In this document: positions 2,243-15,923 of the stretch, one piece after another | How the letters are laid out: each line of letters starts with the position of its first letter | How positions within the stretch are numbered: position 1 is the first letter of the stretch | Source of the DNA: Phyllosticta citribraziliensis | Taxonomy: Eukaryota | Direction of reading: 5' to 3' | DNA: 64,000 bases | NCBI RefSeq assembly: GCF_038025025.1 | Contig: NW_027117341.1 | Coordinates: 1,736,001-1,800,000 of the forward strand | Position numbers and translations under genes: made by a program | Notes under the pieces: model-generated | Databases searched by the model: none | Told to the model about the DNA's origin: nothing | The model's input: the letters and a program-made list of their open reading frames with translations, nothing else

Positions 2243-4057
2243 GCAGCCACGGGGGAAACGTCATGAAGAACGCTCCCAACGAAGAAGAAACGCGAACAGC
2301 GTCCTAGTGGAGGCCCTGAAAGTCTCGGCGTTTGTGGTTTGGGTTGTGGTCAAGATTTTCTCTCCGGTGTCTACTACGTCAGGCGTCGCGCCTTTTCCCT
2401 TCTCTCCGGAGGCCGTCAAGGTCTACCGGCCCTCTTTTCTGAACACTTCTACTTTCGACCTGGTCGCTGCCGACGGCAAGGAATCAATCCTTTTGGAATC
2501 CCGACAGCTCTCGACGTCGCTGCACACGCTTTCTTCTGTGCATCAGCGATGGCCCAGGCCTTTTTCATCATCTCTTTTTCAACAGGTCAAAGAAGGAACG
2601 GCGTTCGAGGTCTCAAACTCTTGAAAAACATTATACCAAACTCGTGGTGTGGGCTTCTATGGTTGATGGATCTTTCAAGAGCTTTGGCTGTTTATGGGAC
2701 TGAGTGTATTTCGTGTTCGAGTTAGGGGCAAGGAGACGGAGCCATGACTGTCTACGAAAGACTACGTGGATGGCATCAGGGAGCAGTCGACTCAACTGCA
2801 CGAAATTTCCAACTTTTTCGTATTCACGTTGCCGGAGAAATCGTTGTTGAGTGTCCCTTGACTGCTGTTATTCCCCGATTGACTTCCAGGATGCTTTGAC
2901 GTAGATGTGATCATGGCACACGCCATAGGGCGTGCGCGCATAATTACTTCGAGTTCGTCCACCCTCTGCCTGCTCTCTTTTTGAGAGGATATTGATGCTC
3001 CGTATTCTACCGCCGCACGATCTACCGCAATGGTTGCTCGCTCGCATGTCTCCATGTCTCCCCCCGAACGCTCACACGAGGAGGCGGAGTTTGCTCGGCC
3101 CTGTCGCTTCAGTCCGGTTCTAGTTCTATCTGGTCCTCGCTTGTCGACTGCAGCGGCAGTCCGAATCTTATGTTCCCTGCAGCGGAAGCGCAGGCGTTCG
3201 TTGCGAATGACGGACGACGCGGAGGCGTTGAATGGCAAGTAGGTGATGAGCATCGTGTGAGGTTGCTGCAGAAGTGAAGCATCTGGAAGCATCTGGTCAG
3301 TCGTCCTTTTTCCCTCTGCTTTTGTATCAAAGATCGCGCTGCTCAGAAGATGAAATTCTATCTCCGGAAAGCCCTCGCCTGTCACCAGCAGGTTCTTGCG
3401 TTCAGGAACCAAGCTGCCTAGGCTTTGAATTACGCTCCGCAGTTCTGTGAGCCGAAAGAGAATGCCCAAGCCGCACCCTCTCGCTTCCTGAGCGCAGCAA
3501 GCACCCGCCGCTTGTTTCAGCATGTTTCCCGGATCCAAATGGAGAGGCGGCGTTCTGCGATGGCGCGATACGATGCCATGCGCTTCGAGGGCAGAGATTG
3601 TTTCCATGTACGCTGAGCCCGTGGTTCTCGGGAGGCTCCGTGCAACATGTCGATTGGATCGCAGTACGGTCCATGTGGCAAGAACGCTCCACATCAGCGC
3701 TTGAGGTCACCGGAAGAAACGACGCCCGAAGCTTTGAGCTGACGCTAAAATGTTCTTTGGACGCGATTAAACAGAACGTTGAAAATGCGCGTTGCGATGT
3801 TGGTGGAGGAGCTTGCGGCACGGAAGAAAGGGGTTTTGTTAGTCAGCACAGCATCCCTCGCGTCTCCCAAACTTCGCGACAAGCACCTTGTTGAGTTTTG
3901 GCGCCGACAACTGCAGCAGCCCACGCACAACCTCAAGCTTCTTCTCCGCCAGCACCGGAACGCGCATTCTCAACGTCCTCTCGAATATCGTCCAAGGAGC
4001 ATCCACACATCAGCCTAAAACCTCGGACGTTGTTCCCAGCCTCTTCGCATTCTCGAC

Positions 4058-4620
4058 ATGCAGAGCGCCCGCACAGCGGTGCGACGATTGTGTCGCCCTC
4101 TTTCTCACCAATCCCACCGCACATTCCACCGCCAAACAGGGCTGTTCATCACCCGCGCTGCTGAAGGCCTGGAAACCAAGCGCTCGGTCGAGATATTTGT
4201 TGGGGACGCGCATGAGAGCTACGTGGTGGTGGAAAAAGAGGTTGGCAATGAGTTGAGAGAAGCCGCATCAATGGCAAACGCTGAGACGGTGCCGTTGACT
4301 TACCATCGCGGCTCTCGCCAGCTCGCATTTGGTGAGCTTCGGGGTTCTTTTGCGATTGGTCCCATGTTGACTGTTCTAGGCGACTCTCAACTTCCCCGCC
4401 TGGTCATTTCTCAAGATCTCGCCGTCCCGCCTGCGTCCAAAGGCGAAAAGAGCGCTGCGACGTTGTGGGCCGCGTTTCCCTCGGATTTGATTACTCTGGA
4501 CGGAACTACCGACCGTGAGGCTCTTCCACTCGGGAGCGTAAGTATCAAAGCTAACTGCCTGGCTAGATGATTTCGCAAAACTGTCGCATGATTCAGTTCG
4601 CAAACTGCGCCCGGTTGTGA
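4058..4620 (+). CDS. Small hypothetical protein with mitochondrial-presequence-like N-terminus (probably 2 introns; C-terminus uncertain)
   Basis: ATG at 4058. The N-terminus MQSARTAVRRLCRPLSHQSHRTFH is Arg/Ser-rich with no acidic residues. In-frame intron 4332-4379 (GTGAGC...TTGAC...TAG). Second donor GTAAGT at 4538 with a CAG acceptor at 4594-4596. The unspliced ORF stops at 4570. Confidence 0.5.
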
Positions 4621-5232
4621 AGCAGCTGAAAAATCGGTAGTTATACCGATAAGGGAAGCGGTTACAAAACTGTCGTATACTTCATTGGACCTCTCTCTCA
4701 GCAAACCGACGCACTTTCGGGTCGATTTGAGGTCAACTCTGCGCGCCCGCTCTTGGGACTCGCCAACCCAGAAACCCATCTTTGTCGACACCGCTCTTCG
4801 GCGCGGCTTCAACTTCGCCGCCACTCGCTCTTGAGCGCTCCCGACTGCAGGACAGTCGTCCAGAAGGGAGATTAAATCAGCAGGAAAAGTCGTCCAACCA
4901 GGGATGTCGCAGAAAGTCACAGGCTGCAGAATGCTGGCCGGCGCAACGTCCCCCTTGTTTCCACGAAGAAGATCCTCTTGATGTCTCAACGCCGATCACA
5001 AATTGCGATTGGGCGATACACACTGTGCGCGCCGTTTCCATTCAACGATTTTGCGCGCCGTTTCCAACAGAGGATCCGAACGTGTTTCGATTGTTGCATC
5101 TGTTGACGTCGCAAGGCGATCTGCGACAAGTTTGTGAATCCTGCCCTGCTTTCCTTTGCGGCGGATAAAAAGCACCGGCACTCGCAGTCTACAGCGTGCG
5201 TGTTGCAGTCTCGACGTCGCCGACGCTGCTTG

Positions 5233-5673
5233 TCATCTCATTGGCTTCTCGGTGCCGGGGGTTGATGTTTCGATACTTTTCGCGACCGATTTGTAGAACG
5301 CTGCGAGCTCCTCGACGCCCATTTGGTTGGTCGCGGTCCTCACATGCGCAGTCGTAAGCGGGTAGTCCTCGCCCGCGCGTGGTGGCTCTGTCACTTCAAG
5401 TCGAAACCCATTCATCTGAAGGAAGATGTCGGCCGCTATGAGAGCTGTTCGCTTGTTGCCGTCCTGGAAAGCATGGTTCTTCATGATCTTTTGCGCCAGA
5501 ATGGCCGCGAGATGGAACACGTCGGTCTGCTCTTCGTATGAGTGTGTATTGACGGGCGACAGCGTCGCGGACTCTAGCATGTCAGGCTGCGTCGGTATTG
5601 CGCGCGCGACTTGCAGGGCGTGTAGAATTGTAACTCGCGATGAAGTAAGGAAATAAAGAGTGCGCGATGCCAT
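5233..5673 (-). CDS. doc: Fic/Doc (death-on-curing) family protein
   Basis: 146-aa intronless ORF. Doc-type motif NHAFQDGNKRTA (5449-5475), LESA motif, N-terminal FLT..V..LH pattern, and FLQMNG after the motif. Confidence 0.92.
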   Translation of the reverse strand: MASRTLYFLTSSRVTILHALQVARAIPTQPDMLESATLSPVNTHSYEEQTDVFHLAAILAQKIMKNHAFQDGNKRTALIAADIFLQMNGFRLEVTEPPRAGEDYPLTTAHVRTATNQMGVEELAAFYKSVAKSIETSTPGTEKPMR

Positions 5674-5719
5674 CTAGTAGTATAGAGATATATGGCGCGT
5701 TGATTAATTAGCCCTAGAG

Positions 5720-8700
5720 AAAAGGAGAGAAAATAAGCATGTCATCTATAAAAGCTATAATAAAATCGTCTAAATACTTAAAGAGAACCTGGTTAATAAA
5801 ACGTTAAAAGGCTACTAGTCTATTACTTAATCTAAAAGGTAAGACACGGTATTTAAATAACCTATATCTTATATAGAAAGTGGTTTTATCTTTAGAATCC
5901 TTAGTAAGATAGATGCAGTAGAAAGCTTATTAAATATTAAGCTTAGTATAAATCTTGCCCTTTCTAATGTGCTGAAGTAACTCTATAATAAGAGGGAGGG
6001 GGTGTAAATCCTTAGTAGTTTATTTATTAAGCTATTAGTAGTCTATATAGAATCTCTATCCCCTACTAGGCTTTTTTACTATAAGAATAGGAGAAGTATA
6101 GGTAGTAAAGCTCTCTATAATAAAGCCTTTCTAAATATTCTTAATAATATACTCTTTTATAGCCTTAAGCTGCTCTAGAGATATTCTATAGAGAGGGCTA
6201 GGTAGAAGCTCTAGTAGACTATTATATATAAGAGATATTTTATAATTAACTCCTATATAATATAGTAGTAGCTTATTAGACTCTATTTTAGAAAATACAT
6301 CTTAAAATTCCTTATAAGTAGCTAGTAGCTTAGAAGCTAATAATTCCTTAGTTTCTTTATCTTTAAGAGCCGCTTAAACTTATATAAGGTTAATAGTATA
6401 GATCTCTATTAGCGTAACTTGTATTTTATAGATAGAAAGCTTAAAAGTATCTTAAGTTTAAAATTTAATTCCCTTAATAACCTATACTAAGGGAAGAAGG
6501 TATTTACTAAAGTTTTTATCTCTATAGTCTATATCTACTTAATATTCTTTCTGCAGTTTATTACTTTACATAGAGACTTTTAGTAGGTATAAAAGATGCT
6601 AAAAGGATTAGTTAACTAGTAGCTATCTCTAGACTAGTTTATATTATTTATAGTCTAGAAGAATATCATGCTGGTTAAAAAACTATTACCTAAGAATTAT
6701 ATTATTACGGCTAATATTATAAATAAAAGTATAAGTAGAAACTATTTAATCCTAGAAGTAGAGTTAAAGATAAAAGTAAAAATTAACTTTCTTATTTATA
6801 TATTAGTTAAACCTAGTAATATTAAGCCCTTTACCTATTATTCTCTTTTTTATAGCACCTATAGACTGGAGAGTTAGTAGTAGCTTAGGGTAAATAAAAC
6901 TTATACTACTAGTACTAGTATTAGCTAGGGCACGAATTTCTAAGGCGCGGCTATTAGATATAATTAAGGTTTATATAGTAAAGGGTATACCTCTAATAAA
7001 GTAACTAAGATTTATATAAGAACCCTTAATATGTATTACTCTAAGTTTAGACCTATAGTAGGAGACTTTATCTAGGTCTTATTATTTTCTAATAAAGACT
7101 AATCTCCTTTATTTATATAGATATCTTTAGTACTTTCTTCTTTAACTAACTCTATTACCTTTATCTCTAGTTATAGGCATTATCTCTATAAATAGCTAAA
7201 CTAGCTATAGTAATTATATAGTCTAATCTCTATATAGACTTCTACTTTACCTTTATAGGTTATATTATATGAGGGAGCCCTAGATATAGATTATACCTAG
7301 GTATAACTAGAAGATAAAGTACTTATACTACTTAAGATAGTTATCTTTACTTATTCTTATTATCTCTTCTTTACTTATTCCTTATATAATATAAGTATTA
7401 GTTTTCTATAGTTAGAATAGTAGTTACTAAGACTTTAAGTAATAGGGTAGGCTTATTAGAGGTACTTATAAAAGTTAATATCTCTATCTTACTCTATAGT
7501 AACTATATAGGTTTAAAGGAGAGGATCTATTATATTATAAAAGTCCTCTTTCTACTATTCCTAGGGAAGATCTACATCTAAGGCTAATTATATAAAGTTT
7601 AATTAAAACTTCTAAAGGTCTATAGGGATATAGTATATAAGAGAGCGTAACTACTTCTTTATATCCTTATATTTATATAGACTCTAAAGGAGGTTATCTA
7701 GAAATTTAAAGATATCCTTATCTAGAGTGACTTTATTAGCCTTTATATAAGAAGTAAGGAAAGGAGTTAGGTAATATAAGACTTCTCTACTAATATAGGA
7801 AATAATATAACCTATAATATTCTATTTAGTCTCCTCTACTATATCTTTAGTAAAGTGATTGTGGTTTTATTTAATTTTATTTTATATAAGGAGGGTCTAG
7901 TATTTATATAAGGGGTCTTCTCTATTAGTAAGAAGAGGAGGATTAGGAACCTTACTACTTTAGTATTTCTTACTACTTAAAGATAAAGTAGAGGTTTTAG
8001 TAGTAGTTTCCCTTATATAGTTAGGAGGAGGTCTAAGAGTCCTTATAACTCTACTAGTAGAAGGATCTTAAGAGAGGGTAATAGGTCTTAGGTACTAAGC
8101 TAATAAAGAGGGCCTAATATATCCTTCCCTTAGAACTTCCTTAAGTCTATTAGTATAGTTTAAGAGTATTTACTTAAGAGCCTAGTTTTACCTTTATATA
8201 TAGTTTAGTTGCTGCTGTACTTAAGACTTATTTAAGGATGCAATCTTAGATTTAAATTAATTAATATCTAAGCGCGGTACCTTTATAAATACCTCTATAA
8301 CTAGAGCTTAAATTATATAAGTTAACCCTAGGTCTTAGGTACGTTCTTTTACCTCTACTACTAGGACTAAGTAGAAATTATATAGGAGAATAGGGGTAGG
8401 TCCTCTCTTATTATTATTTAATAAAAGTCTAGTATTATATAAATCTTTAGTCTCTTTATATGAATCTTATTAAGTTAATTAACTAGTACTAATATCTTTA
8501 GTAGTACTAGATGTATTAGCTTTATTCTTAGCTATACTATCTTTATAGTCTTCTACTTAGAATATTCCTTAAGTAGGTTATAGATAGGACGCCTTCTAAA
8601 TATTTATATACTACTCTATAGCCTTAACTAAAGACTTCTATAGTTAATATATACTTAATACTCCTTAGTCCTTAGATAACACCGATGCGCCTAATAAAGA

Positions 8701-9700
8701 TAACTTAGGTTTACTAGAGAAAAGTAATAAGTAGTCTTATATAAGACTATAGCTATATATAATATTACTTAGGTTAAATATTATAATACCTTTATAGGTA
8801 AAGAAGTAGGATAGAGCTAAAACTTAGAATAATCTTTTATATCTATTATAACTTATAGATTTCTCGTTATATAGGTAAGGGCTAAAGGCAAACTACTAGA
8901 GAATATATATATATCTTAATTAAATCTAATAAGTTAAAAGAATAAAATATAAAAGATACTTACTACCTATATATTTCCTAGTCCTTCCTTTATACTATTC
9001 TACCTCTTATCCTTTATATAAGGGTCCTTGGTTATTATTAGGTAAGTTATAAAGGTAAGGTATTAATAGGCTATTATATAGTATCTATCTAGGGCTATAG
9101 TAGCTGGTGCCAGCCTATAGTAGCTAGTACTAGCCTGCGGGTTTTAGCCTAAGCTATAGCAGGCTGCTACCTAAGGTAAGGCTCGTGCTTCCTATAACTA
9201 TATAATACTAGGTTTATCTATACTAGCCCTAGTACTTACCTACTATATAATACCAGGTTTATCTATACTAGTTCTAGTACTTATATAGGCGCGTGTATGC
9301 CTATCGTGATAAAATTAGTATTAGTAGTAATAAGTAGATAAGTAGCTAAGGCATATATATATATATATATTAGAGTAGTATAGTAGGTATAAGGCTTAAG
9401 GATAAGGATAAGGATAAGAAATAGAGATTTTAGAAGTAGAAGGTATAAGAGAGGTATATATAATATATAAATAAGATAATATTTATAATAGTAGAGTAAG
9501 TAGATAAGTAAAGCCTTACTAAAAACCTTAATACTATAGCCTAGCTAATAAAGGTAATAAGTATAATCTATATAGCTAATTAATTATATAGATATTATAT
9601 TATATAAGGTACTAATTATATTATATAATATAATATTATATAATACTATAAATCTATAAAGGCAATTATATAGAATTACTAATAACTCTAATAATACTAA
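5720..9700 (-). mobile_element. RIP-degenerated, 3'-truncated Ty3/Gypsy LTR retrotransposon (gag, protease, partial RT); outer boundary/LTR approximate
   Basis: Very AT-rich and TpA-rich. Reversing C>T/G>A changes on the minus strand restores a gag CCHC knuckle (7177-7218, CNYCGQFGHLQRQC), the protease motif ALADTGA (6911-6931, now ALANTST), and RT segments SPIL.VKKP...R(F)xxDY, HPLPLI and YRVLPF. FIDDMLIFS is read directly (FIDD at 5741-5752). Confidence 0.9.
9197..9283. repeat. 45-bp period tandem duplication (2 copies) in the presumed retrotransposon leader
   Basis: actatataatac(t/c)aggtttatctatactag(cc/tt)ctagtactta starting at 9197 and 9242. Confidence 0.8.
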
Positions 9701-10500
9701 GAAAGTTAATACTAGTTAGTAGAGTAAATAGATACCCTACTTCCCCTTTATTATTAATTTTAGAGTAGATAGACCTAGAGAAATATAGTTAGCTATAATT
9801 CTTAAAAAGGTAGTTTTACTTCCTACTCTTAGAAGTATTTTAGCTAACTTAAGCTATATTAAAAGAGAATAGATAAAACTAGATCTAGAATCCTAATAAT
9901 TTTAAACTAGAGCTAGGGCTAAGTATATTAGATAAAATATTTTATATTAAGGATACTACTAATCTAGTATAAGGTTTAGTTAATAATAATAGTAATAATA
10001 CCTAGATAGCTAATCCGCCTTAATAAAATTATAGGATAGCGGCTAATAGTACCTAAACTAGAAATTAAGTAAATAAAAGAGCTAAGGTTAATTATTTAAA
10101 CCTAAAAGTTATAGGCCCTTCTAATAATCTAGATAGAGTACTTAATCGATTTAATAGATTAATAGGTGCGTAGAAATTAGAGCAATTAAATTTATACTAA
10201 GAGACTATAGATAATAATAAATATATAGAGCCTAAGCTATAGACTAGTAAATTAGTAAAATTAAAACCTTAAAGGGATAGACATGTCGCGCATGCTAATT
10301 CTAGTAGTTTTATAATTAGCTTAAGAAACTTTCTCTTTATTTTATTCTCTACTTAAATTAATTCCGTGTATTTAAAAAAGGGCTTAGGGCTGCACTTTAA
10401 GCTACTTTCTAATAGCTCTAGTAAAACTAGTGGTACTTTTCTTCTTTCTAATTATTCTATTAAACTGGGGCGCGACTAGGATCTAGATTAAAAGGAATAA
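9700..10500. other. RIP-mutated AT-rich flank, not recognisably retrotransposon-coding
   Basis: TpA-rich, grading into normal GC content by about 10520. No gag/pol motifs recognised. Confidence 0.55.
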
Positions 10501-11052: not shown

Positions 11053-12615
11053 ATGTCGGATGACACAGATCTCGAGACCATAAAGCACGGTGACGGCATA
11101 ATAGCCTACATGCAGAGAATCGTCCCCCAGAAAACGACTCCTACACTTGAAGATAATATTAAGAGATACAGTTTCTGTCGGGCCGACCAGATGAAGGCTT
11201 GTAGTGTTAAGGTTGAAGATGGATCAAACTACCGGCTTGTGGTAAAAATTGGTGATGGATTCCAATTCGGAGACTAGGACTGGCTGTGTTTGAAGATCTA
11301 AATTAATGGGGACTGGGAATTTGGTTAACCAGTCTACCAACTGCAAGGAGCTTTCTCTACGATATTAAAAAGTCACACACATGGGTGGAAACATTGTTAC
11401 TCTTTCGGAACATCTGAACTAACCTACATCTTTTAGGTAACAACGACGTTTGTTGCAGTTTTTGGTACAATCACACAAGCAAATTCCTCGTTCTGCGACA
11501 AGAAAAAGCTAACTATCCTCCCCAGAAGCTGAAATGTCATTAGGTTTTCCAACACTCTCACCCCACGGCAGAATCAATATCATTTTTCAAAGATTGACAG
11601 AAGCCCAAAGAAACTGCTCCAATATCTGTGGAGATCGTGGAGATATCAGAGCTCGGGCTCTCGCTGGATTTGGGAACTTACCTCACGTGAAGTATGGGAA
11701 AACGCATCAGTTTTCGCTCCATAATTTGACCACAAAATAGACCTTGCGTCCAGGCGGAATGCAACAATGATTCTGTCCGTCGATCAGTCGAAGAGTGGGA
11801 AAAGAACTTCGACGAGCCATACCAATTGACCCTCTATTACAAGACTCAGAGTAATGAGCCGGGTCCTTGCCTACAAAGCTACTATAATAACATCAGGAGG
11901 CAGAGCGCATCAATTCAATGAGACCAACATTTCGAACCGATGAGAGTGACTGGACTCCACCGACGGAGTCAAGTGGTGAGGAGGGCAGCGACTCGGCTCG
12001 GCCCAGAAAGCTTCCCCCCAAAAAAAACAAGAAGCCCAAGACACGCAAGCATGCTTCCGGAGGCATCAAAAAACTCGACCCTCCGAGACGAAAACGACTC
12101 AAGTCGCGCAAGGAACTCAACGAAGTTGAGCGTGCTTCAGGAGACGTCCCGCAGGCTGATCCTCCGCAGCCTTCTCTCACTACTTTAGATCCCAGTAAGT
12201 AACCCTCGGAGCGTTGAAGGAACAGGACTCTTCCTGACGAGAGCTTTTGTCAGATGATCTCACAGACGACGACGAATTCTGCACCCCGCTTTCCACACTC
12301 AAGCAAGAACCCGCACCGATCTCCAGTGGCGAGAAAGTGATTTCGATTGATCAAGGTAAAGGTGGTATTCCGGACGAAGGCAAAACAGCGCCAGGGCGAG
12401 ACCGCGAAAACCCCGTCTGTATAGAAGACCGCCCCATCTCGCAGGCCTCCGCGCTGCAATCTGGCCAAGAGCCAAAGGACCAGACCACCGAGTCCGTCGC
12501 CGCATTCAAAGACATGGACGAGGAGGAATTGCGATTGAAATTGCTAGAAACCGAGCTCAAACGGGAAGAGGTGTCGCTCAAGCTACGGCTCAAAAGACTC
12601 AAGAAGAGAAGTTGA
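11053..12615 (+). pseudogene. Multi-exon hypothetical gene (DUF7918-like architecture, tentative) inactivated by premature stops
   Basis: Exon 1 reads GD*DWLCLKI*INGD, matching GKWDWLRIQVQVGD in the paralog at 14.6 kb. Stops at 11275, 11299 and 11326. Introns include 12195-12253 (GTAAGT..CTGAC..CAG). The last exon ends DMDEEELRLKLLETELKREEVSLKLRLKRLKKRS*. Confidence 0.65.
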
Positions 12616-13139
12616 TGGGCGCTTCTTTTTCTTTCCTTTCTTTCCTTCGGGAGTTGGTGGTGTTGGTGTCTGGTTGAGTGCGGGTGGGCCGCTGGCGGAA
12701 AGTCGGCAGTCACCTCGAGTGGAGCCTTCGTAGACGATACATCCGGGCTCCTACCTTACCTTACCGTGCACGCCCACAACAACATCCATTCTGTCTATCC
12801 TCGAGGCGCAATCCTTTCTCTCTCCACGCGTACAGACTGCGTGCTCTTTCCGAAAGCTATTCGTTGACTTGACCCATATCCTCCTGTTGACCTGCACTTC
12901 GAGCCCGTTGGCTTGAGCCTGCGACATTCAATCGACCGATTGCGACCAGTTCTCAACTTTTGCGCCCTCATACACATGATCTGGCTCTGAAAGTCAGACT
13001 CGGAGCCCTGGAGATCAACTGCCAGCTGACAAGTGTGCAAACTGGACCCAATCCTGATTCTTTTCCGTACTGTTGACTGTAAATGAAAGCTCGATGCGCA
13101 CTCAAGCTCTTCAACCTGACCAAACTCAATTTGCGCCAG

Positions 13140-13465
13140 GTGATCTCACCGAAGACGAAGAGTACTCAAATCTTGCCAAGATCGAAGAACCTCCTCCCAG
13201 AATTACGAACGGCGAAAACGAAACTCCCAGTCGGAGCGAACAGAGCGGAGAGCAATCCACTTCCAAAAATGGAGAAAGCGGTGGTGACTCGAGCCAAACC
13301 CAGTCAAACTGTTCCTTGGCACCAAAAGGAGACCTCGCTGCCAAAATCACCAACATTGACGACATGGATGAAGAGGAGGTAATGTTGAGATTGAAAGATG
13401 TGGAGCTCAGCCATCAAGAGATAGCACTCAAGCTGCGTCTGATGAAGCTCCGGAAGGGAAGGTGA
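13140..13465 (+). other. Duplicated terminal-exon module, copy 2 (xDLTEDEEY...DMDEEEVMLRLKDVELSHQEIALKLRLMKLRKGR*)
   Basis: Homologous to exon 12254-12615. Preceded by branch point CTGAC (13116) and CAG acceptor (13137-13139) in the same splice phase. Confidence 0.7.
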
Positions 13466-14595: not shown

Positions 14596-15923
14596 ATGGC
14601 ACACTACAACGAAATCAACGTCTGGCTCGAGAGCGCCTCGACCAACACCAACGACGAACGAGAAACTTTGTATACCGACCCTTGCTGGCCCGATCAAAGT
14701 TGCAGAATGCTCGCCGCAGAAGACGAGAAGATGTGCAGCATGCGTGTGAGGGCGTCCGCAGCCTTTTGCTCCGGCAAATGGGACTGGCTGAGGATCCAAG
14801 TGCAGGTTGGAGATATAGAGCCGGAGGTCTATTTGGTTGCAAACAATACTGAGCTCCAGGGTCTGGCAGGAGTGCAACTGGAACGGTTCGAATTGCCAGG
14901 CGCAATACCAGGCATCCCGTTCGGACCAGACCTTCCAAATAGTTCTCGAATTCGAGGTGTCGTGTCGAAAAATCGCGGATCCGTCAAAGGTGCTGTACAC
15001 TCCCTTTCAAGTGATAGCCGAGGAAATGTAAGTTGAAATATACTGTCTTTGAGTATGCCGTGCTGACATTCATACTAGACCGGATTTCTTGCAGGATTGT
15101 GGGGTCGCATGGTTCAACGACGCGTTTCATTTCTCCATCCATTTAGTCTCCCATTTTCATTCGGGTAGCGTGAGCCCCGGCCCCATGGAACGCTGATGAG
15201 ACTGACACAATTTCGCAGAATTAGCCCCGTCGAGCGAATTTCCCGATTTATGGGTTTCCGAGCTGAGCTTTGCTACATCCAGGACATTCAGGAGAACGAC
15301 AACTCAAGCAGACGTTCCACAGGCTGGCCCTCAGCAGCAGCAGCAGCAGCCAACTCCATCGGGGTCCGTCGAGTCAACAACGGCTCTCGATTCAGTGGTT
15401 TCGGGGACGAGCTCGGCTGCACCCAGGACACGCAGAAAAAAGAAGGCTCAAGAAAACGTTCCAAAAACTCGCAGGCGAACGAGAACTCGAGAAAACGTGC
15501 CACAGGCCGACCCACCGCAGCAGCGACTTACTCCATGGAATCCCGGTGAGTCGGAAATGGGTTCCAGCTCCATTATTGCATCTGGCTGACTTTTCCCCAG
15601 CCGACCTCACAGATGATGAGGAGTATGCGACCCTGCCAAAGATTGAGGAGTCTCCTCCCCCTCATATCGTGAGTGGCGGTGAAATCGAAGCCCTTGGCCA
15701 GACTCAAAAGAGTGGAGAGGGGCCCGCTTCGAATGCTGGAGAAAACAGCAACGAAACACAGACAGACGGTCATCCAAGCCCCAATGACGACTCCGTCATC
15801 AAAGAGGAAGTAAATGGTTTTGAGGCTAAAGACCCACGAGCTCGGCTGTCAAACGACAGCACTCAGGCTGCCTCGTCTGCATATGATGACGGGGAGGAGA
15901 ATGTGAACTCTCGCATGACATAG
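14596..15923 (+). CDS. Paralog of the 11053-12615 gene, multi-exon, possibly frameshifted
   Basis: MAHYNEINVWLES...GKWDWLRIQVQVGD. Introns 15028-15078 and 15546-15600. Shares VPQADPPQ before and DLTDDEEY after the same-position last intron. The middle exon frames could not be joined unambiguously. Confidence 0.55.

Follow-up and report, generated by a model that had tools for sequence, protein, structure and literature searches.

The window analysed here, a stretch of 64,000 nucleotides from the fungus Phyllosticta citribraziliensis (contig NW_027117341.1, positions 1,736,001 to 1,800,000), holds a gene of the Doc (death-on-curing) toxin family that faces a small spliced gene on the other strand, and the question raised by this locus is whether the two genes belong together and, if so, what the second gene, hereafter the partner, does for the first. 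Our comparative data suggest that Doc and the partner very probably work together. With evenly balanced confidence, we further propose that they constitute a conserved eukaryotic module, probably a toxin with its neutraliser or regulator, possibly acting in mitochondria.

The gene at 5233–5673 on the minus strand is an intact member of the Doc/death-on-curing family with a Fido fold like that of Doc from phage P1. It encodes 146 residues without intron or internal stop, and its open reading frame (ORF) matches the profile hidden Markov models of Pfam Fic (PF02661; E 3.4e-13, 50.7 bits where 24 are required) and of the NCBIfam death-on-curing toxin subfamily DOC_P1 (TIGR01550; E 1.4e-15, 57.5 bits where 38.65 are required). 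The sequence match in the Protein Data Bank (PDB) is P1 Doc (3k33; phmmer, E 3.2e-7). The AlphaFold (AF2) model, in which residues 137–146 are disordered, has a predicted local distance difference test score (pLDDT) of 87.6 and a predicted template-modelling score (pTM) of 0.82. The first ranks of a Foldseek search with this model are taken by 3dd7, 3k33 and 3kh2 (template-modelling (TM) scores 0.81–0.87, root-mean-square deviation (rmsd) 2.2–2.9), the best match being P1 Doc 3dd7 (TM 0.87 by target, rmsd 2.3 Å), and FICD and VbhT appear as lower-ranked structural matches.

The active-site consensus of Doc proteins is, in outline, HxFx(D/N)(A/G)NKR, with a Lys at the position where Fic AMPylases have Gly. 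The window protein reads H67-A-F-Q-D-G-N-K74-R75 here, and H67, D71, G72, N73, K74 and R75 are invariant across the 21 fungal Docs of our protein collection. The whole catalytic motif is thus kept, including the Lys of the kinase rather than the AMPylase type, and kinase activity is predicted. According to a review, Doc is a Fic-fold kinase that phosphorylates EF-Tu at Thr382; the Lys of the motif, which is K73 in P1 Doc and is replaced by Gly in Fic enzymes, causes ATP to bind in inverted orientation, and what is transferred is then phosphate and not adenosine monophosphate (AMP) (PMC7180214).

The origin of the fungal gene was addressed with a tree of 75 Doc sequences, i.e., 74 of the 78 matches of the Doc search and one Trichophyton Doc, with P0005, P0019, P0023 and P0056 left out as partial or aberrant. 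All 10 named and 11 unnamed fungal Docs (21 of the 75 rows) form one clade on a long stem, with a Shimodaira–Hasegawa-like approximate likelihood ratio test (SH-aLRT) value of 99, and the bacterial Docs stand apart; since the tree is unrooted and of few columns, a donor cannot be identified from it. In the ESM Atlas, a cluster labelled 'DOC family protein' has 201 members, 95% of them eukaryotic and most from Ascomycota. Sequences of the fic/doc type have been noted before in 'a few fungi', and the portion of that work concerned with them describes no partner (Kinch 2009, PMC2686095). Two expression tables list members of the family, which are not discussed in the respective papers: the Aspergillus fumigatus 'DOC family' gene AFUA_8G06180 is 3.3-fold up with conidiation (PMC5838799), and Trichophyton rubrum 'DOC family' TERG_02161 has a value of −2.25 with terbinafine (PMC6963840). 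At the C-terminus of many fungal Docs an additional tail of some 25 residues, ending in '...(E/A)Y(R/K)xxATEY', is conserved (alignments A1 and A3), which is absent from bacterial Docs and from both Phyllosticta copies; the idea that this tail is a cis-inhibitor of Doc was dropped, the Phyllosticta copies being without it.

The partner gene lies convergently to Doc on the plus strand and consists of three exons within 4058–4640, which bears out the earlier description of an intact Doc gene facing a small spliced gene. Exon 1 (4058–4331) encodes the presequence-like residues 1–22 (around R21-T22-F23-H24) and the first part of a β-rich core, exon 2 (4380–4514) the rest of the core up to a conserved LDGTxD motif, and exon 3 (4567–4640, with the stop codon at 4638–4640) the C-terminal helix, residues 135–158 of the model described below. 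Both introns, 4332–4379 (48 nt) and 4515–4566 (52 nt), are of the GT..AG type; the position of the first is common to family members, and the second lies directly 5' of the helix exon. The three-exon product is identical to an annotated 160-residue protein of P. citribraziliensis (P0079), and neither gene has a second copy in the window.

Sequencing contigs from four runs were compared with positions 2600–6000. Two of them, X1 and X2, come from one organism and two studies, the RNA nature of the runs being only guessed; in their contigs precisely 4332–4379 and 4515–4566 are removed, and the partner gene exists in spliced form. The same contigs cross, without a break, the tail-to-tail spacer of 592 nt between the two stop codons (4641–5232) and the entire Doc ORF, to 5782 (X1) and 5736 (X2). 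A third run, X9, from another organism (organism B), contributes unspliced DNA of about 92% identity across both genes. All six indels listed for 4259–5675 in organism B lie in intron 2, just past the partner stop or in the spacer, all four that are listed between the two genes fall within the 592-nt spacer, and none is listed in the coding exons of either gene.

That homologs of the two genes are linked elsewhere had been set beforehand as a test of the pairing, and it is this linkage that carries our argument. Metagenome contigs were scanned with the fungal Doc alignment and 80 loci were kept, of which 16 (L001–L015 and L018) hold a fungal-type Doc, in every case as an intact ORF; L016 and L017 are bacterial-type by their translation. 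In a tblastn search with 21 partner proteins, the partner was found within 1 kb of Doc in 15 of the 16 fungal-type loci and in none of the 64 bacterial-type loci. The single fungal-type locus without a partner, L006, is on a contig that ends 370 nt past the Doc stop codon. The 15 partner-bearing loci fall into six groups at the DNA level, and therefore stand for six lineages instead of 15. By tblastx, groups resemble each other in Doc and the partner alone, and the flanks hold differing core fungal genes, i.e., those for ribophorin II, TOR kinase, EF3, eIF2A, an arrestin and a P450. The convergent order of the window recurs in four groups, with stop codons 95–278 nt apart. The order is divergent in L015 and tandem in L004 (L004:2430-3423), where the Doc stop codon at 2838–2840 is followed on the same strand by the partner ATG at 2851, with 10 nt between. 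The L004 spacing is operon-like for a eukaryote, and the Doc ORF of this locus reads the same as the start of a Trichophyton Doc (P0164). In three unrelated lineages the pair stands 1–7.5 kb from a gene of translation or growth control, namely TOR kinase (L005:10519-16391), eIF2A (L015:369-1919) and EF3 (L002:15962-16417), which is probably a coincidence, if a curious one for a putative translation toxin.

Linkage is found in named genomes as well. In Zopfia rhizophila, Doc (KAF2194728.1) and the partner (KAF2194729.1) are on one contig, and their adjacency is inferred from the consecutive accession numbers. In Trichophyton interdigitale and T. mentagrophytes (P0109, P0167 and P0170; 255–271 residues) annotated models run from Doc into the partner, compared with 127–136 residues for Doc alone in T. 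rubrum, and in Claviceps arundinis (P0159) and Akanthomyces lecanii (P0100) they run from the partner into Doc; the two genes must therefore adjoin on one strand in these genomes. Inherited synteny or a shared promoter would hardly explain an adjacency that is kept through changes of orientation and surroundings in three fungal classes; such an adjacency is what selection for co-inheritance would give. The proposal, made by a sequence-only reading of the window, that Doc and its neighbour act as partners in a eukaryotic system of two genes has thereby gained strong comparative support. Its accompanying picture of an accessory setting rich in transposable elements does not generalize, the pair standing among TOR, eIF2A and ribophorin II genes in other lineages.

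The partner had been taken for an orphan, and a word-seeded protein search indeed returned the partner itself alone. This view was abandoned, however, when an exhaustive HMMER search of 1.84 billion cluster representatives gave 65 relatives at E≤1e-3 (66 with the query); repeating the word-seeded search with the family alignment gave seven proteins. Most relatives have 150–180 residues and align end to end, and all named members are from Pezizomycotina: P. capitalensis, Zopfia, Aspergillus oleicola, A. stella-maris, Epichloe, Blastomyces, Cirrosporium, Claviceps, Nemania, Massariosphaeria and Elsinoe. P. capitalensis has two paralogs, with 51% and 43% identity to the window partner. Known families offered no assignment. 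The window partner has no NCBIfam match; 19 family proteins matched no antitoxin family in Pfam, where the sole match above the cut-off was Fic in the Doc half of the merged model P0109; 13 members had no match in PADLOC; and a comparison of the family with PDB sequences gave nothing above threshold. Sub-threshold matches to a PriA zinc ribbon, AtaL, Aim19 and a pinoresinol reductase were dismissed as stray.

The model of the partner, calculated from a 39-sequence alignment, has a pLDDT of 91.3 and a pTM of 0.81, and comprises a poorly defined segment of residues 1–20 (pLDDT 63), nine strands and one helix within residues 23–131, and a long C-terminal helix, residues 135–158. The best Foldseek match has an E value of 0.055, and the best Z score in an exhaustive structural scan with VIA-align is 4.2, with UTRA-like effector domains among the matches. 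The model thus seems not to be assignable to a known fold, which does not prove that the fold is new. Querying the ESM Atlas with the partner gave no feature matches, and the structure rows returned there derive from a poor model made by the Atlas itself (pLDDT 0.36). The polar residues conserved in the family are a His at position 84 (92% of members), R98, S116, T119, D132, T134 and D136.

The two N-termini differ in character. The partner has its first acidic residue at position 36 and six Lys/Arg residues among the first 30, and most of the 32 partner proteins compared have no Asp or Glu and four to eight Lys/Arg in this segment. The N-terminal sequence is otherwise variable and closes with a conserved R-x-[F/L]-H, in which R21 is present in 95% of members. 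Mitochondrial presequences typically span 20–30 basic, hydroxylated, acid-free and amphipathic residues and are commonly cleaved with an Arg at position −2 or −3; the composition of the 32 partner proteins fits this pattern, and the ordered fold of the partner starts at residue 23, which is where this R-2 rule would place the cut. The partner N-terminus hence provisionally looks like a cleavable mitochondrial presequence with Arg at −2. This composition had been remarked on from the window sequence, and its conservation in the family favours the mitochondrial idea. For Doc, the corresponding remark that the first 30 residues are free of Asp and Glu is correct as to composition, the first acidic residue being D31; fungal Docs have 0–2 acidic and 2–4 basic residues in the first 30 positions, compared with 2–7 acidic residues in 13 bacterial Docs. 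The suggested parallel to a presequence does not hold, however, because the segment includes helix 11–21 of the Fido fold (pLDDT 94) and so is not removable; at most, the Doc N-terminus could be an uncleaved targeting signal.

A further connection to bacterial systems may lie in the C-terminal helix of the partner. In 42 of 48 bacterial-type loci examined, an ORF of 63–101 residues ends at the doc start. The encoded antitoxins have several kinds of N-terminal domain and a common C-terminal helix of about 24 residues, which MAFFT places against the C-terminal part of P1 Phd, the Doc-binding segment. The neutralising part of bacterial Doc antitoxins appears to be a portable module. The antitoxins of L019–L080 (AbrB-like 'MKYLGI...', Phd-like and others) end in '...SIxEHRxTLExLA(K/R)' (alignment A5). 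When the partner family was compared with them by hhalign, one local match was obtained, between the C-terminal helices (23 columns, P 0.0084, probability 4.8%), and both aligned helices stop one or two residues from the C-terminus. The helix has a last exon to itself in the window partner and in six further loci, the position of intron 2 recurring in L001, L002, L004, L005, L008 and L012. The similarity of the helices is best regarded as a lead, not as proof.

Taken together, we favour the following explanation. The two genes would be a module conserved among filamentous ascomycetes, made up of a Doc-type Fido kinase of bacterial toxin descent and a partner of 160–175 residues, known so far from fungi, in which a presequence-like N-terminus, a β-rich core and a C-terminal helix from its own exon are combined. 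The partner would be the cognate neutraliser or regulator of Doc, perhaps by way of its C-terminal helix, in the manner of bacterial Doc antitoxins, and the principle of control proposed is obstruction of the active site by a helix; linkage would be kept since Doc without the partner would be harmful. That the partner restrains Doc directly has, in our view, about an even chance. More tentatively, both proteins may reside in mitochondria, where phosphorylation of the bacterial-type EF-Tu would slow translation; this assignment of site and target is doubtful, if a real possibility. Action on bacterial competitors had been put forward as an alternative target and has found nothing in its support, with no signal peptide seen and no predictor run. 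In its most extended form, which we consider rather unlikely, the explanation would have an ancestor of the filamentous ascomycetes take up a bacterial antitoxin-doc operon and keep Doc, the antitoxin helix surviving as the last exon on a novel, mitochondrially targeted domain and the pair acting on mitochondrial EF-Tu to stop translation in the organelle, as a regulated brake, a defence or an addiction device.

Several observations weigh against parts of this explanation. Blastomyces, Epichloe and Elsinoe bear a partner without a listed Doc, and strict adjacency is not universal: in four assemblies of P. capitalensis the partner paralogs (P0082 and P0083) are on the same contig as the single Doc (P0002), at apparent distances of 6 and 18–19 accession steps, a layout that appears looser than in other lineages. 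Doc dN/dS (the ratio of nonsynonymous to synonymous rates) between close lineages is 0.38–0.73, which, with few changes, is not clearly below neutral. Strand cannot be told from the contigs, and transcription running on past the end of the partner gene could in principle account for the cover of Doc. With respect to the helix, 7 of 200 shuffled-column controls score as high as the match to the antitoxins (p about 0.035), so that the similarity is weak; against P1 Phd alone the alignment extends over seven columns (DHDFAKL/DAEFASL, E 0.19) and is not significant; BLASTP of the partner against P1 Phd gives no match; and amphipathic helices often align with one another. Furthermore, the helix has a pLDDT of about 95 in the monomer model, and is probably packed on its own core, unlike the free tail of Phd. 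The window partner itself departs from several consensus residues, e.g., R84 in place of the His found in 92% of members. Finally, Doc has no separate presequence, so that its mitochondrial import is conjectural, and a partner in the matrix could not neutralise a cytosolic Doc.

This last point leads to the strongest rival, in which Doc is a domesticated cytosolic regulator that phosphorylates eEF1A, on the homologue of Thr382 in EF-Tu, or another host protein, the partner being a co-factor, adaptor or substrate and translation being lowered in states such as conidial dormancy. The relevant passages of PMC9292714 report that T430 of eEF1A is conserved, that the phosphomimetic T430D is lethal in yeast, and that T430 is related to the EF-Tu residue whose phosphorylation blocks formation of the ternary complex. 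The location of the pair among core genes in several lineages, across three classes, fits long-term use by the host, and expression of AFUA_8G06180 and TERG_02161 changes with state (PMC5838799, PMC6963840). However, a relation of enzyme and co-factor leaves unexplained why linkage persists through four gene orders and changing flanks, the N-terminus of the partner resembles a mitochondrial presequence and not the start of a cytosolic protein, the distribution is patchy and the close-range dN/dS is high; we consider this rival unlikely.

Another rival is a selfish toxin-antidote element, such as a spore killer or post-segregational killer, which would spread or persist by harming progeny or nuclei that lose it. 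Linkage that is tight whatever the orientation is what addiction systems require, the positions in the genome differ between lineages, the divergence is fast (63% identity for Doc and 51% for the partner between P. citribraziliensis and P. capitalensis), the dN/dS values of Doc fit, on few changes, the window copy abuts RIP-degraded repeat DNA (RIP, repeat-induced point mutation), and the bacterial ancestor is a classic addiction toxin. Against these stand the single copy in the window, the many loci among housekeeping genes and the conserved intron positions of the partner, which point to old vertical descent, and make a selfish element quite unlikely.

In some pairs one protein reverses the modification made by the other, e.g., Lem3 for AnkX and DarG for DarT, and the partner could likewise counteract Doc enzymatically, without binding it. 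The compact globular fold and the conserved polar residues, His 84 among them, would suit an enzyme. However, no similarity to a phosphatase or hydrolase is seen in Pfam, NCBIfam, PADLOC or the PDB, and the window partner has Arg for the conserved His, which renders this possibility very unlikely. That fungal Doc is a harmless relic in inherited synteny without functional meaning would agree with dN/dS values not clearly below 1 between close lineages, but is highly improbable given that Doc and the partner are the sole similarity between loci with differing flanks, that adjacency is retained in four gene orders, that all 16 fungal-type Doc ORFs are intact and the 21 fungal Docs of the protein collection show no variation in their catalytic motif, and that the indels of organism B avoid both coding regions.

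The proposed pair of toxin and neutraliser or regulator compares most closely with Phd-Doc of phage P1 and the bacterial Doc modules with AbrB-, ribbon-helix-helix (RHH)- or Phd-type antitoxins. The toxin is homologous, with the same fold and the HxFxDGNKR motif with kinase-type Lys, the two genes are likewise a tightly linked unit, and the last helix of the fungal partner is weakly profile-similar to the C-terminal helix of the antitoxins. Unlike Phd-Doc, the fungal pair is nuclear and eukaryotic, and its partner, of twice the length, is interrupted by spliceosomal introns, carries a presequence-like N-terminus and, in place of a DNA-binding domain, has a globular core without a clear known fold. 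There is no operon as in type II modules, the usual order being convergent, and the putative antitoxin does not belong to the Phd/YefM, AbrB/MazE or RHH family. VbhT/VbhA and FICD/HYPE share the Fido fold, and their control by an inhibitory helix is the principle proposed for the fungal pair; they carry, however, a Gly-type Fic motif and transfer AMP, whereas fungal Doc has the Lys, as judged by the portion of PMC7180214 that deals with the motif. FICD is, in the corresponding part of another study, an animal endoplasmic reticulum membrane protein with tetratricopeptide (TPR) repeats (Kinch 2009, PMC2686095). The fungal wtf and Spok drivers resemble the pair in that a harmful activity is linked to a protective one, in their patchy distribution and fast divergence and, for the window, in the degraded repeats nearby. 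Both functions of wtf and Spok are encoded in one gene. The fungal pair differs in having two genes, no sequence relation to the drivers and many copies among core genes, and drive is only a candidate function here.

To our knowledge, toxin-antitoxin modules are regarded as a prokaryotic invention, and eukaryotes are known for single toxin-related domains, not for conserved toxin-partner pairs. Full-text literature searches, with most subscription journals outside their coverage, returned no description of a fungal Doc-partner pair, nor did they for the A. fumigatus locus tags. If our explanation is true in its most extended form, no type II toxin-antitoxin-like module would have been natively conserved in the nuclear genome of a eukaryote before this pair. 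In the pair, a toxin kinase of bacterial type has retained one and the same neighbour in three fungal classes, four gene orders and unrelated settings. It offers a concrete two-gene system for asking how a translation toxin gained by horizontal transfer is brought under control in a eukaryote, and bears on whether phosphorylation regulates mitochondrial EF-Tu and on whether the kind of selection behind plasmid addiction can also preserve gene linkage in eukaryotes. With the partner comes a protein family so far without a name, of at least 66 sequence clusters, for which the fold prediction is confident. Carriers of the genes include genera of medical or agricultural relevance (Trichophyton, Blastomyces, Aspergillus, Claviceps and Phyllosticta), in which the annotation goes no further than 'DOC family' or 'hypothetical'.

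Within the window, the pair had been described as bordered by transposable elements, which is appropriate for the right side only. Here an AT-rich RIP-type block (5680–10400; 4.7 kb, 27% G+C) begins 7 nt upstream of the Doc ATG, with a TpA/ApT index of 1.73 and a (CpA+TpG)/(ApC+GpT) index of 0.17, compared with 0.46 and 1.20 in the gene pair. The left flank is ordinary in composition, and the X1 and X2 contigs that cover it reach 60–110 nt into the block on the other side. The block may vary between isolates, because beyond 5736, on the right, the contigs of X2 and of a further run, X3, no longer follow the window; the sequence with which they continue was not found anywhere in the window.

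Two minor features of the surroundings were observed. Left of the pair, positions 2600–3776 are covered by X1 and X2 contigs and may represent an unannotated transcript or a long untranslated region; the sole long ORF of this interval, 2792–3706 on the minus strand (304 residues), is without a Pfam match. Right of the AT-rich block, three tandem ORFs on the plus strand (12238–12615, 13058–13465 and 15267–15923) have in common the acidic sequence 'DLT(D/E)D(D/E)E(F/Y)', and two of the three a coiled-coil-like C-terminal 'DMDEEE...LKLRL.(R/K)LKK'; no Pfam family was found for the two that were scanned, and the ORFs look like a small local family of paralogs.

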